A DNA stretch of 64,000 nucleotides from an uncultured Actinomycetota bacterium. GTDB lineage: Bacteria; Actinomycetota; Actinomycetes; JAHEKZ01. Location: assembly GCA_963829525.1 (NCBI GenBank), contig CAWHIJ010000003.1, positions 704,001-768,000 of the forward strand, given 5' to 3'. The notes under the pieces are model-generated. The model saw only the letters and a program-made list of their open reading frames with translations. It made no database searches and was not told the DNA's origin. The translations under genes and the position numbers were made by a program. Positions 1,768 to 5,618 of this stretch are shown here, one piece after another. Within the stretch, counting starts at the first letter, position 1. Each line of letters starts with the position of its first letter.

Positions 1768-1952
1768 CGAATGCTTCTCAACTGGCAGCCTGAGCAGACA
1801 GAAGCGGCAAGTCGGTAGGCCAGCCGGACAACACACACACGATCCGGATCGCGGGTGCGGCGGTTTCTCAGGTGTCGAGCTGATCGCTACTCTTGCATCC
1901 CGTGCCCAGCCCAACGACGATCACCTCGGACGTCCAACTCCCTGCGAGTGGC

Positions 1953-4037
1953 ATGCGTCCAACGCATCGCCGAAGTGATATCCAGGGACTCCGGGCGATC
2001 GCGGTCGGTCTGGTCGTCGCCTACCACGGGGGGCTGCCGATACCCGGCGGATTCATCGGGGTCGACGTCTTCTTCGTGATCTCCGGGTACGTCATTGTCG
2101 GGCTCCTGTACCGCGAAGTCGAACGGTCCGGGCACATTGATCTTCTGCGCTTCATGACTAGGCGGGCCAGGCGGATTCTGCCGGCGCTCGCACTGGTCAC
2201 TGCCGTGACTTGCGTTGCGGCCTGGTTCTGGCTGAGTCCCTTCGGCCCACAGCAGGTGACTGCTGGGACAGCGGCCGGGGCGATGCTCTTTTACGCGAAC
2301 TGGTACATCCGGGTCCGTAGTGGGAACTACTTCGATGAGGCAGCAGACGTAAATCCGCTACTGCACACATGGTCTCTGTCCGTTGAGGAGCAGTTCTACT
2401 TCGTCTTTCCATCACTGATGGCCGTGGTGTGGCTTGCTGCCGTACGGCGCCGAGTCGCTCCCCGACCTGCGTTGGTCACCATGATGGTGTTGGTGGGTTG
2501 CGCCTCCCTGGCCGCCGCTCTTTGGATGACCAGCAGAGGGGGTGGTCAGTCCGTCGCCTGGGCGTTCTATGGCTCGCCTTTCCGGGCCTGGGAGTTTGCA
2601 GTCGGTGCGCTCGTCGCCGTCGGCGTCCGACAGCGGTCGAGGTTGCCTGGGATTGCGCTCACCGCGTTGGCGGGGCTCGGCGTTGCCGCCATTGCGGCCA
2701 GCGCCTTTCTGATCGATAGCTCTACCCGCTTCCCTGGGCCTTGGACACTCGTTCCTGTGCTGGGAACCGCCGTAGTCATCTACGCCGGGACGGGCACCTC
2801 TACGGGTCCGTTGCGTGGTCTGTCGTCAAGACCAATGGTGTGGTTGGGAGACCTTTCATACTCTTGGTACCTGTGGCACTGGCCGGTGATCGTCTTTGCG
2901 TCCCTTTGGTTGCGCGACCAACCTGTATGGGTTGCGACTGCAGCTGCGCTGTCGCTTGTGCCAGCCTGGCTTTCATTTCGGCTGGCGGAGGAGCCGATTC
3001 GTCACAGTGGATGGACGGGTCGGACAGTAGTGGTGCTTGCCGCAATCTGCATCGGTGTGCCTGTTGCTGGCGCTGCCCTCTTGACGCACCACGCAAATGG
3101 CGCCGTGGAGCAAATGAATGAGGTCGTCAAGTCACAACCGGCGCGAAAGTTCGGTTTCGTCGCGAAGAACCCACAGCCAGATGATCTCTTTCAGGCTGCT
3201 GCCCTCGCACAGCGAGGGCAATGGGCAGTCTTCAAAGAGCCCTGCCTTTCAGGTGCCGGCAACGTGTTGGGCGATTGCAAGTTCTTTGAGGCGCCAGGTC
3301 GCCCACGAGCTGTTCTCGTTGGTGACTCGCACGCAGGCGCCTATGCGGCAGGGTTCGCGGCGGCTGCTCGTGAACTGGGGTACTCCGTAGAGATCATCTC
3401 CAACGGAGGATGCCAAGTGCTCGATGTTCCCCTTCTACGTGACGGTGAGTACGACCGTGGGTGCGCTGAACGCGTGAAGGAGACCTGGAACTACCTTCGG
3501 GAGGATCCTCCAGACCTGCTCGCCATGGCGCATCGTTCACCGCGGGTGGTATCGCCGGAGATCTTGCTGGCTGATGAGCTTCGGCCGGGCTACACGACGA
3601 CTTGCATCACCGGATCGACCCACGAAGGGTGTCTGCCGCACGACGAGGCAGTCCGGGCCTGGGCCTCAGCTCTTGGTGACGCAGCAAAGAGTCTGCAGTC
3701 ACTTGGTGTTCCACTGGTCGTGCTTCAAACAGCTCCCGAGCACAGCGCGGGCCTTCCGGAGTGCGTTTCCGGGACGACGGTCGATATGGAATGCACTGAG
3801 ACTGACCGCGACCTCACGTGGGATCGCCGGGTAGACGTCATCGAAGCCGAGAAGCAGGTCGGCGCAGATTTGGGCTTCACTGTGTATGACCCCTTTGAAC
3901 ACTTCTGCGACGCTGAGACCTGCTATCAGTACATCGACGATCGTTTCTACTACCGTAACGACGACCACATGAACGCCGACGGCAGTGAGGCGCTCACCGG
4001 CGAGATAAAGACGGCCTTGGAAGAGGCGGTTTCGTAG
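1953..4037 (+). CDS. Acyltransferase-3 + SGNH-domain O-acyltransferase (OatA/OafA-like); start uncertain
   Basis: IQGLRAIAV, GVDVFFVISGY, HTWSLSVEEQFY, GDLSYSWYLWHWP; C-terminal GDSHA and NDDH SGNH-like motifs. Confidence 0.85.
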   Translation: MRPTHRRSDIQGLRAIAVGLVVAYHGGLPIPGGFIGVDVFFVISGYVIVGLLYREVERSGHIDLLRFMTRRARRILPALALVTAVTCVAAWFWLSPFGPQQVTAGTAAGAMLFYANWYIRVRSGNYFDEAADVNPLLHTWSLSVEEQFYFVFPSLMAVVWLAAVRRRVAPRPALVTMMVLVGCASLAAALWMTSRGGGQSVAWAFYGSPFRAWEFAVGALVAVGVRQRSRLPGIALTALAGLGVAAIAASAFLIDSSTRFPGPWTLVPVLGTAVVIYAGTGTSTGPLRGLSSRPMVWLGDLSYSWYLWHWPVIVFASLWLRDQPVWVATAAALSLVPAWLSFRLAEEPIRHSGWTGRTVVVLAAICIGVPVAGAALLTHHANGAVEQMNEVVKSQPARKFGFVAKNPQPDDLFQAAALAQRGQWAVFKEPCLSGAGNVLGDCKFFEAPGRPRAVLVGDSHAGAYAAGFAAAARELGYSVEIISNGGCQVLDVPLLRDGEYDRGCAERVKETWNYLREDPPDLLAMAHRSPRVVSPEILLADELRPGYTTTCITGSTHEGCLPHDEAVRAWASALGDAAKSLQSLGVPLVVLQTAPEHSAGLPECVSGTTVDMECTETDRDLTWDRRVDVIEAEKQVGADLGFTVYDPFEHFCDAETCYQYIDDRFYYRNDDHMNADGSEALTGEIKTALEEAVS

Positions 4038-4062: not shown

Positions 4063-4557
4063 TCAGCGGTAGTTGACGTACTGCAGCGCGACTTCGAGGT
4101 CCTTGCCGTCGAGCAGCCGCTGGACGGACTGGAGATCATCGCGGCTCTTGCTCGTCACCCGCAGCTCGTCGCCCTGGATCTGAGCCTTGATGCCCTTCGG
4201 GCCTTCGTCACGGATGATCTTGCCGATCTTCTTGGCGTTCTCCTGGCTGATGCCCTGGGAGAGCGTCCCACTGATCCTGTACTCCTTGCCGGAAGCGGCT
4301 GGGTCCCCGGCGTCGAGGTGCTTGAGGGACACCTTCCGCTTGACCAGCTTGTCCTTGAAGACGTCCAGCGCCGCTTTGACCCGCTCCTCGGAGTTGGCCC
4401 GCACCTCGATGCCCATTTCACCCTGCCAGGCGATAGACGCGCCAGTGCCCTTGAAGTCGAAGCGCTGGCTCAGTTCCTTGGCCGTCTGGTTCAAGGCGTT
4501 GTCGATCTCCTGACGGTCGACCTTGCTCACGATGTCGAACGAGGACTCCGAGGCCAT
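4063..4557 (-). CDS. yajQ: YajQ family nucleotide/c-di-GMP-binding protein
   Basis: [34 protein letters not shown]. Confidence 0.92.
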
Positions 4558-4656
4558 GGGGTTCCTTCCGGGCTGGTCTGAGGCGCTGAATGGTCGGCAT
4601 ATGCGCGATAGGGGGCTGCGGTATTGTTGTCGTTCGTCGCCCAGCGCGGCAAGCCT

Positions 4657-4738
4657 GGCAGGTTGCCCGAGTGGCCAAAGGGAGCGGACTGTAAATCCGC
4701 CGGCTCAGCCTACGTTGGTTCGAACCCAACACCTGCCA
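4657..4738 (+). tRNA. tRNA-Tyr(GTA)
   Basis: GGCAGGT/ACCTGCC acceptor stem, CTGTAAA anticodon loop, long variable arm, GTTCGAA T-loop. Confidence 0.97.
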
Positions 4739-5099
4739 CGCCGAGAACCCCCGACCGCGGTCGGGGGTTCTCGCATTCGCCGGCCATTCGCCGGCCATTC
4801 GCCGCGACGATGGATGCCAGGACTGCGAGGCCCACCACAGTTCCGATCAGACGCCAGCGCCCCGTAACCGTCCCCAAAACGGCGCCGGCACTCGCCGCCG
4901 ACATCAGCGACCCCACGCTGGCGGCCGAGAGCGCTGACGCAGCCGAAGCTGCTGAGCCAATCGACAGGACCGACCCCACAGACCCCACAGAGCCGATGCT
5001 CGCTGCCGACCCAATCGAGCCGATCGATAGGACACTGCCCTGAGATGCGATGGAAAGGAACGAGTCGCTGGACGCGAGGGAGAGCCGGGAGTTCGCCAT
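4710..5099 (-). CDS. Hypothetical (Ser-X-X)23 repeat protein with C-terminal TM helix
   Basis: Ser at every third residue from 4 to 70, encoded by both TCN and AGY codons; CACAAT -10-like box 6 nt before the ATG. Confidence 0.7.
   Translation of the reverse strand: MANSRLSLASSDSFLSIASQGSVLSIGSIGSAASIGSVGSVGSVLSIGSAASAASALSAASVGSLMSAASAGAVLGTVTGRWRLIGTVVGLAVLASIVAANGRRMAGECENPRPRSGVLGVAGVGFEPT
4742..4773. terminator. Perfect 32-bp palindrome, probable bidirectional terminator
   Basis: CGAGAACCCCCGACCG/CGGTCGGGGGTTCTCG directly after tRNA-Tyr. Confidence 0.7.
4774..4804. repeat. 11-nt tandem repeat (about 2.8 copies)
   Basis: CATTCGCCGGC CATTCGCCGGC CATTCGCCG. Confidence 0.85.
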
Positions 5100-5208
5100 A
5101 CGCGAATTGTGGTCCCCAAGCGGGGATCGCGATAGTCGAGCGTGAGGCCGATTTCTCCGGCAGTGTCAGCCCCGTGTAACCTGTCTCCGCTCGGGAAAGC
5201 CGAGTAAG

Positions 5209-5281
5209 GCCCCAATAGCTCAGTCGGTAGAGCGTCTCCATGGTAAGGAGAAGGTCTACGGTTCGATTCCGTATTGGGGCT
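5209..5281 (+). tRNA. tRNA-Thr(GGT)
   Basis: GCCCCAA/TTGGGGC acceptor stem, TCTCC-ATGGTAA-GGAGA anticodon arm, GTTCGATTCC. Confidence 0.96.
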
Positions 5282-5328
5282 CGGGGCCTGGCCATCGATC
5301 TTCACCGGTCGCGGCGTCAGGTTCGGTC

Positions 5329-5453: not shown

Positions 5454-5618
5454 GTGGCCAAGAGCGACGTTCGGCCGAAGATCACGATGGCCTGCGCGGA
5501 CTGTAAGAACCGCAATTACATCACCAAGAAGAACCGCCGGAACGACCCCGACAGGATCTCGTTGCAGAAGTTCTGTCCCAACTGCGGCAAGCACACTGAG
5601 CACCGCGAGACCCGTTAG
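5454..5618 (+). CDS. rpmG: 50S ribosomal protein L33, Zn-binding form (below ORF-track cutoff)
   Basis: [54 protein letters not shown]; RBS AAGGAG. Confidence 0.97.

Follow-up and report, generated by a model that had tools for sequence, protein, structure and literature searches.

A serine-repeat gene between two tRNA genes

A minus-strand open reading frame (ORF) in a 64,000-nt stretch of contig CAWHIJ010000003.1, from an uncultured Actinomycetota bacterium, encodes a short protein in which Ser recurs at every third residue; we call it the Ser-repeat gene. The whole stretch is referred to as the window, and all coordinates are those of the window. The ORF lies between a convergent tRNA-Tyr gene and a divergent tRNA-Thr gene, and an earlier note, made from the letters alone, had singled it out for its periodicity. 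The parts of the locus are as follows.

4710-5099, minus strand: Ser-repeat coding sequence, 129 amino acids plus a TAG stop (4710-4712)
5106-5111, minus strand: -10-like hexamer CACAAT, 6 nt upstream of the ATG, a candidate promoter of the leaderless type
4884-5090, minus strand: Ser-x-x repeat domain, residues 4-72, 23 triplets, with Ser at 4 through 70
4800-4856, minus strand: predicted hydrophobic membrane helix, residues 82-100 (AlphaFold2 and hydropathy)
4788-4799, minus strand: basic tail NGRR, residues 101-104, the usual C-terminus in the orthologues of the genus
4713-4787, minus strand: genome-specific C-terminal extension of 25 residues, product of a frameshift after residue 104
4774-4804, no strand: 11-bp tandem repeat, 2.8 copies (Tandem Repeats Finder; three-way DNA alignment)
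4742-4773, no strand: 14-bp G+C-rich hairpin, a likely bidirectional terminator, inside the extended ORF and after tRNA-Tyr
4657-4739, plus strand: tRNA-Tyr (GTA), called by ARAGORN, Rfam 54.9 bits, convergent with the ORF
5209-5282, plus strand: tRNA-Thr (GGT), called by ARAGORN, Rfam 68.8 bits, divergent from the ORF

The unbroken run of 23 Ser triads described in the earlier note is exact: Ser stands at 23 of the 23 positions 4, 7 and so on to 70, and 100,000 shuffles of residues 1-75 never gave a period-3 Ser run longer than 11 (mean 3.4). Each Ser is followed mostly by Ile, Val, Leu or Ala, and then mostly by Gly, Ala or Leu. All six Ser codons, from both codon families, are used in the gene (TCG 10, TCC 4, TCT 3, TCA 2, AGT 2, AGC 2), and Tandem Repeats Finder detected no DNA repeat beneath the pattern, its only hits being a 9-bp unit in 2.2 copies (4972-4991) and the 11-bp unit in 2.8 copies (4774-4804). 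The periodicity is therefore one of the protein, as had been noted. Residues 82-104 consist of WRLIGTVVGLAVLASIVAA followed by NGRR.

Downstream, the last 30 nt of the ORF, stop codon included, overlap tRNA-Tyr on the opposite strand. The hairpin that the ORF crosses before reaching the tRNA has a folding energy of -38.5 kcal/mol (z -4.74; 0 of 200 shuffles equally stable), and it is kept after tRNA-Tyr in same-genus genomes with and without the Ser-repeat gene. Rfam scored three tRNAs, and nothing else, above threshold at the locus.

Evidence for a genuine coding gene

A search of 40 relatives identified homologues between tRNA-Tyr and tRNA-Thr in eight of them, from four genera of one family: G008 (88% identity) and G006 (84%), both of the same genus as the window, together with G019, G018, G015, G017, G012 and G007. 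Comparison of codons 1-104 among the window copy and its same-genus orthologues in G008 and G006 gave ratios of nonsynonymous to synonymous substitution rates (dN/dS) of 0.10, 0.10 and 0.14. In the same three comparisons, the 53, 69 and 42 differences were distributed over codon positions 1/2/3 as 7/6/40, 11/9/49 and 8/5/29. Such a comparison across homologues had been proposed in the earlier note, and its outcome is that of a selected gene. The other two sense frames gave dN/dS values of 2.7-6.7 for the window against G008 and G006, and the antisense frame gave 0.20-0.33 because its wobble positions are shared with those of the minus-strand gene, whose own frame has the lowest ratio of all.

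The ORF might instead be spurious, either as a chance frame in G+C-rich DNA, as a shadow of the opposite strand or as a regulatory leader rich in Ser codons. A 139-residue frame is indeed open on the plus strand (4624-5043), antisense to the gene, and the antisense dN/dS is itself lowish. However, this plus-strand frame begins before tRNA-Tyr and runs through it, and it is therefore treated here as the shadow of the real gene; its low dN/dS illustrates how an antisense shadow can look selected. The lowest ratio belongs to the minus-strand frame, promoter and ribosome-binding signals are position-specific at the minus-strand start (see below), and a protein family of 1305 clusters exists. A leader would precede a regulated gene, whereas the next feature here is a convergent tRNA, and in a leader peptide the non-Ser positions would not be conserved as they are; on these two counts a Ser-starvation leader was rejected. 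We consider a spurious ORF extremely improbable. Taken together, these comparisons establish, at the level of sequence, that the minus-strand ORF 4710-5099 is a real and selected protein-coding gene with its own predicted promoter.

In leaderless actinobacterial genes, where transcription starts at the start codon itself, a -10 hexamer is expected to end about 6-7 nt upstream of that codon. The CACAAT box 6 nt before the ATG had been recognized in the earlier note as being of this type; the box is kept in G008 and G006, and the arrangement proved to be general in the family. When the start codon closest to the repeat was taken in each of 77 family loci, 46 of them proved to have a hexamer of the form NANNNT that ends 7 nt (36 of these) or 8 nt (10) upstream; at any other offset from 1 to 30 the count was 0-4. 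The arrangement in the window, CACAAT followed by 6 nt and ATG, is the modal class of the family. Sites of the GGAG type are present in 22 of 79 family loci, and start codons in other genera have such ribosome-binding sites upstream. As the window copy has the hexamer at the leaderless distance and no ribosome-binding site, the position of the -10 box suggests that transcription would start at the start codon and give a leaderless mRNA.

A large family without a name

A word-indexed protein search returned 404 matches at E<=0.01, all 'hypothetical' or unnamed, and a profile search of 1.84 billion representatives (clusters at 50% identity) returned 1305, 598 and 50 clusters at E<=1e-3, 1e-10 and 1e-30. 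At least 557 genomic loci were confirmed in a pattern scan of species genomes, and the counts given below for 80 loci refer to the best 80 of these. The best 80 loci come from Streptomyces, Kitasatospora, Micromonospora, Salinispora, Virgisporangium, Kribbella, Nocardioides, Cellulomonas, Janibacter, Terrabacter, Parafrankia, Jatrophihabitans, Acidimicrobiales, Solirubrobacterales, Thermoleophilia and others, and the lineages over which the family is spread also include relatives of Frankia, the Acidimicrobiia and numerous uncultured groups. In an even sample of the phylum, at least 35 of 401 genomes (one of them, G127, unpublished) and at least 24 of 254 genera had a match at E<=1e-5; these are lower bounds, as 10 candidates were scored per genome. 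Two of the best 80 loci (L025 and L074) lie in bins labelled Acidobacteriota and Rubrivirga, which could reflect mis-binning or rare transfer outside Actinomycetota.

The absence of a described function or family, as stated in the earlier note, held up against Pfam, NCBIfam, PDB and the literature. Pfam had no match for the window protein, and among 72 members it matched only Collagen, once, at E 0.85. The sole NCBIfam match was HxsA (HxsA4; E 0.012, 16.5 bits against a cut-off of 55). PADLOC returned none, and a family search of PHROGs returned nothing below E 0.03. A PDB sequence search found only the artificial (TGS)n linkers of fusion constructs, and the ESM Atlas gave unnamed Actinomycetota clusters and no named one. 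No tblastn match was obtained in plasmids and phages, where the BLAST low-complexity filter may have masked the query, and nothing on a family with Ser at every third residue was found in the literature, small-protein lists in supplements being outside the scope of that search. The label that NCBI gives to family members is 'hypothetical protein'. Gene callers often miss the family, since 15 billion predicted proteins include none identical to those of the window, G008 and G006. Fused forms are rare: only 3 of the 150 best representatives exceed 230 amino acids, and their extra parts look like read-through from neighbouring frames.

Judged from these searches, the family is large, made up of stand-alone proteins of about 100-140 amino acids, belongs to Actinomycetota and has no name; as far as we searched, both the gene and the family are undescribed. 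More than 1000 sequence clusters of one regular design, in a phylum of high biotechnological interest, thus match no curated family, solved structure or paper that we could find.

The tRNA setting and loss of the gene within the genus

The earlier note had also stressed the position between tRNA genes. This is true of the locus itself, and across the family it appears to be a lineage-specific accident and no part of the function of the protein: a tRNA lies within 4 kb at only 5 of the 80 loci, so a functional link to tRNA genes was discarded. When the neighbouring ORFs of the 80 loci were clustered all against all, the three largest clusters were the gene itself (79 loci), its antisense shadow (70) and one covering 9 loci, which looks like an ABC-type ATPase. 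As no neighbour is widely common, the gene stands alone, and the tRNA setting is peculiar to this bacterial family.

The passage of the ORF through the terminator and about 29 nt into tRNA-Tyr, also pointed out earlier, is real in the window (30 nt with the stop) and is not a feature of the family. A three-way DNA alignment revealed that the window carries one more copy of the 11-bp unit CATTCGCCGGC (plus strand) than G008 and G006, an 11-column insertion. The proteins of G008 and G006 end in NGRRT-stop and TARRT-stop, before the hairpin, and their TAA is lost in the window copy; read-through into tRNA-Tyr results from this tandem duplication, which shifts the frame after residue 104. In G017 (L008), of another genus, read-through of the hairpin to the same TAG within the tRNA-Tyr antisense also occurs, independently of the 11-bp duplication.

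In four same-genus genomes (G001, G004, G009 and G010; L089-L092) a cassette of about 360 bp (~4775-5140) is missing from the same site, leaving 20-90 nt between the tRNA-Tyr hairpin and a conserved block before tRNA-Thr, with both flanks retained. The copies in G007 and G012 require at least two frameshifts to be read, and G011 has no such ORF in the 340 nt upstream of tRNA-Thr; in G002, G003, G005 and G013 the site is unassembled. As the genomes of the relatives are metagenome-type assemblies, some of these indels may be assembly errors. By its distribution, then, the gene is accessory: under purifying selection where intact, yet dispensable, repeatedly lost in the genus and patchy across the phylum.

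Whatever the family does, the window copy may be a gene on its way out, giving a stopless mRNA that is rescued and degraded, or a protein with a 25-residue foreign tail. The 11-bp insertion and the loss of the TAA, both relative to G008 and G006, the strong hairpin inside the extension, and the state of the gene in the genus (deleted in four genomes, frameshifted in two) all point this way. Against this, the repeat, linker, helix and NGRR are intact and under purifying selection, the ORF of G017 with its TAG in the same place argues that such an end is tolerated, and the duplication itself could be an assembly error. We therefore rate decay of the window copy as rather unlikely, if a serious possibility.

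In G018 (L006) and G015 (L007), both of other genera, about 1-2 kb with extra ORFs lies between the Ser-repeat gene and tRNA-Thr, and one of the inserted ORFs resembles a short-chain dehydrogenase by eye. With these insertions, the locus seems prone to insertion and deletion.

Conservation and repeat architecture

Homologues that keep the Ser register, whose absence the earlier note had named as the finding that would speak against it, exist in numbers: in the 19 core columns of the 80 loci, Ser occupies 1481 of 1520 cells, and the replacements are mostly Ala (21) and Cys (11). Codons of both the TCN and AGY families occur in 17 of the 19 columns, so that here too the periodicity belongs to the protein. 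The family was aligned with 72 sequences (alignment A2) and with 131 sequences, and in both alignments the Ser register is nearly free of indels. In alignment A2, Ser is invariant at S22, S25, S28, S31, S34, S40 and S43 and reaches 90% or more in a further eleven Ser columns. Conservation extends beyond Ser, as G21, G30, G36, G39, G48, L15, L24 and I26 are also at least 90% conserved.

The overall layout is likewise regular. The window protein starts 3 residues before the repeat, in keeping with the very short N-terminus of the family, and has no signal peptide; the repeat domain is near-invariant in length (about 66 residues), and 101 of 131 members have 21-24 triplets. It is followed by a short, variable linker with Arg, then by one hydrophobic segment and a short basic tail. 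Across the family the repeat core, approximately residues 21-61, has almost no charged residues. Most members carry an S-R-W-S-L motif at both ends of the repeat, and the window protein lacks these Trp residues. Autocorrelation of the triplet profile is 0.38 at lag 3, 0.14 at lag 6 and -0.03 at lag 2; correlation at lags 3 and 6 in the absence of lag 2 indicates about seven nonapeptides, roughly S-x-L S-I-G S-V-G, and not hexapeptides.

That the Ser rule is kept through switches between codon families argues for a fold or a chemistry in which Ser is irreplaceable. Since the non-Ser positions and the length of the domain are conserved as tightly as Ser, we favour a fold over a mere array of acceptors.

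Comparison with known repeat proteins

The earlier note had likened the repeat to collagen and to springtail antifreeze proteins. The analogy fails, as both follow a rule of Gly at every third position and here Ser is the periodic residue. With collagen (PF01391) the protein shares a small residue of period 3 over about 70 residues; the periodic residue is Ser and not Gly, the abundant Pro of collagen is absent, and the Collagen model of Pfam hit a single one of 72 members, at E 0.85, so a collagen-like protein was ruled out.

The polyproline II (PPII) bundle antifreeze proteins of springtails (snow fleas) are built of G-X1-X2 repeats in which Gly faces the interior and X1 is itself often Gly; they carry a signal peptide and are secreted, and only Collembola have been reported to possess the fold (PMC10235112). 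The likeness lies in unbroken tripeptide repeats within a small protein, the springtail repeat making three residues per turn with one residue class on each face (PMC10235112). In contrast to the springtail proteins, it is Ser that is invariant in the present family, Gly occupies only some of the third positions (about 44-96% by triplet), and the protein has a predicted membrane anchor and no signal peptide. By composition and by the missing signal peptide, the protein falls outside the secreted G-X1-X2 class.

Two kinds of beta-solenoid were considered on account of the short regular repeat, the superperiod of 9 or 18 residues and the conserved Gly and aliphatic positions. The RTX beta-roll is built of calcium-binding GGxGxD nonapeptides, and the left-handed beta-helix of acyltransferases of hexapeptides. 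Despite its nine-residue superperiod the family has no GGxGxD, no Asp in the core, hence no calcium sites, and no Pfam RTX match at E<=1, and the RTX roll was excluded; the hexapeptide helix was excluded by the lag-2 value of -0.03 and by the lack of a Hexapep match at E<=1 in 72 members.

Ser at every third residue of a short actinobacterial or other bacterial peptide also recalls the precursors of class III lanthipeptides (SxxSxxxC) and of azole peptides such as phazolicin. Such precursors are found beside their modifying enzymes, have Cys or a leader and lack a membrane anchor, none of which holds for the present family. Membership among these precursors fails on context, as no adjacent modifying enzyme is conserved and the largest neighbour cluster covers 9 of the 80 loci. 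A sortase-type sorting signal was dismissed as well, the 'TG-R' found before the helix in the genus not being conserved across the family.

HxsA (NCBIfam NF038313), the effector of the HXS antiphage system, is the closest named protein by profile. [quoted passage not shown] The two have in common that they are small bacterial proteins with a strict three-residue repeat containing Ser. The window protein, in contrast, has no His in residues 1-104, no signal peptide and no Pfam domain, and the Ser-repeat design is one of 23 uncharged repeats and a C-terminal anchor. In its own genome the best scores for HxsB and HxsC were 74.4 bits (cut-off 370) and 28.3 bits (cut-off 267.9), with both matches well away from the locus, and no radical-SAM partner was found among the conserved neighbours in the 80 loci. 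Membership of HxsA was ruled out, at 16.5 against 55 bits and without maturases, signal peptide or His.

A predicted membrane anchor

The helix followed by NGRR that the earlier note had described is confirmed as a prediction. Residues 82-100 are hydrophobic, the best 19-residue window of the window protein having a mean Kyte-Doolittle value of 2.01, and AlphaFold2 draws an anchor helix at 79-106 with block pLDDT values of 83-89 (83-91 over the two runs, described below). Both lines of evidence support a predicted C-terminal membrane helix in the window protein. With such a helix and no signal peptide the protein would count among the single-pass membrane proteins with a C-terminal anchor, an architectural class and not a homology family.

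In 67 of 131 members a C-terminal 19-residue window reaches a Kyte-Doolittle value of at least 1.6, with a median of 12 residues after it. In these 67 members, 12 residues contain on average 2.96 Lys and Arg after the helix versus 2.03 before it, and 0.43 Asp and Glu after versus 1.21 before. From this charge balance, the basic tail is probably cytoplasmic and the Ser domain on the outer face, an orientation that we hold with some reserve.

The fold of the Ser domain

AlphaFold2 was run on the window protein with 72 sequences (mean pLDDT 57) and on member P0031 with 131 sequences (mean pLDDT 61), and the fold of the Ser repeat is beyond current structure prediction. For the PPII bundle (in antifreeze proteins a two-layer one) or triple-stranded fold suggested in the earlier note, the two runs yielded nothing beyond a low-confidence helix over the repeat. 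On other grounds, we tentatively suggest that the Ser domain is not an ordinary alpha-helix and may instead be extended, with three residues to each turn, or form a solenoid, at a probability clearly short of even. Behind this lie its composition, which is rich in Gly, Ser and beta-branched Val and Ile, a hydrophobic pattern that peaks at a three-residue period, the nine-residue superperiod, and summed insertion energies on the Hessa scale that are unfavourable (+4.7 to +8.8 kcal/mol per 19 residues for the repeat; about +2 to +3 for the anchor). In such a structure the Ser hydroxyls would line one face, Ile, Val and Leu a second, and Gly and Ala a third, and the domain could self-pack at the membrane surface, within one molecule or between copies.

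The repeat could alternatively be alpha-helical and embedded in the membrane, with the uncharged stretch of about 40 residues at its core folded as a helical hairpin rich in small residues; together with the C-terminal helix this would give a three-helix protein; this might possibly oligomerize through Gly/Ser contacts, line a channel with Ser or perturb the membrane. A helix is what both AlphaFold2 runs give for the repeat, the core at ~21-61 is almost uncharged in the family, a Ser stands four residues after every conserved Gly (the small-xxx-small spacing), and many small membrane proteins are, like this family, small, accessory, patchy and without partner genes. However, the pLDDT of that helix is only 41-62, and Ser of period 3 would cover all faces of a helix, which leaves the strict register without a reason. 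The insertion energies given above are also unfavourable for a membrane-embedded repeat, and no conserved turn-forming break interrupts the register. We judge the alpha-helical arrangement unlikely, though a serious rival.

Another possibility is that the Ser ladder is mainly a substrate: a membrane-anchored carrier might offer its hydroxyls as a regular array to be O-glycosylated, acylated or phosphorylated, or the protein might be the precursor of a ribosomal peptide, with its Ser residues turned into something else. The rare replacements in the Ser columns (mostly the 21 Ala and 11 Cys among 1520 cells) would fit this, and a three-periodic His-x-Ser effector that requires enzymatic maturation is known (PMC13128918). 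A PMT-family glycosyltransferase is encoded in the genome (78.9 bits), and this hardly discriminates, because the PMT model also matches E. coli and B. subtilis. On the other side, no modifying enzyme is a conserved neighbour in the 80 loci, HxsB and HxsC stay below cut-off in the genome (74 versus 370 and 28 versus 268 bits), the non-Ser positions and the domain length are as conserved as Ser, and a C-terminal membrane anchor is not typical of peptide precursors. A role chiefly as substrate is thus quite improbable.

Our preferred reading, to which we give nearly but not fully an even chance, is that of a real, leaderless and accessory gene whose product is a membrane-anchored, self-packing Ser-ladder domain that is not alpha-helical. 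Several observations weigh against it. No experiment or transcript demonstrates expression: in 3 of 4 RNA or possibly RNA runs the contigs are restricted to the tRNA-Tyr part, and the fourth run, whose status as RNA is a guess, contains a 124-nt piece flanked by adapter that corresponds to 4917-5040 with one mismatch. Termination at the hairpin would leave the mRNA with no stop codon, in which case the window copy may be non-functional. In 64 of 131 members, many of them from short contigs, the simple hydropathy threshold for an anchor is not reached, and some of these may truly have no anchor; the difference in charge between the two sides of the helix is modest, and it would be unusual for an N-terminal domain of about 80 residues to cross the membrane with no signal peptide. 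Finally, both AlphaFold2 runs draw the repeat as one long alpha-helix, at a pLDDT (41-62) that makes the drawing untrustworthy either way.

As a guess at the cellular role, the self-packing, anchored domain might act as an envelope-associated scaffold or surface-modifying element, and not as an enzyme, toxin or peptide precursor. A bolder version is a 'serine collagen', which would be a structural principle not described so far: a chain of fixed length with three residues per turn, or a nonapeptide solenoid, in which a ladder of about 20 Ser hydroxyls replaces Gly packing and which is tethered on the outer face of the actinobacterial membrane; this is speculative, and we think it more probably wrong than right by a wide measure. 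An extended chain places such Ser residues about 10 Å apart, a textbook geometry and not a computed value, a spacing that might be in step with that of a periodic polymer of the envelope, for example a beta-1,4 glycan strand. Solving one member of the family would bring to light either a new repeat fold or a small membrane element of a new kind, and the question lends itself to direct testing, since culturable genera carry the gene and it is short, stand-alone and dispensable.

Flanking features

Conservation of the block before tRNA-Thr (5141-5208; GTGAGGCCGATTTCTC...GTGTAGCCTGTCTCCGCTCGGG) extends to five same-genus genomes, those with the gene and those without it alike; the block presumably serves the tRNA-Thr/tRNA-Met unit as promoter or leader. 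The neighbours of the Ser-repeat gene are the following.

1893-4037, plus strand: AT3 acyltransferase fused to an SGNH domain
4063-4557, minus strand: DUF520 (YajQ-type) protein
5454-5618, plus strand: ribosomal protein L33
5696-6142, plus strand: FAS1-like/MaoC-type dehydratase

The order tRNA, L33, dehydratase near the locus is one that we take to be typical of Actinomycetes. Runs labelled freshwater sediment, sediment or estuary metagenomes, the richest of which may be the source sample itself, contain 0.23-0.52 of the words sampled from the locus (4560-5210).

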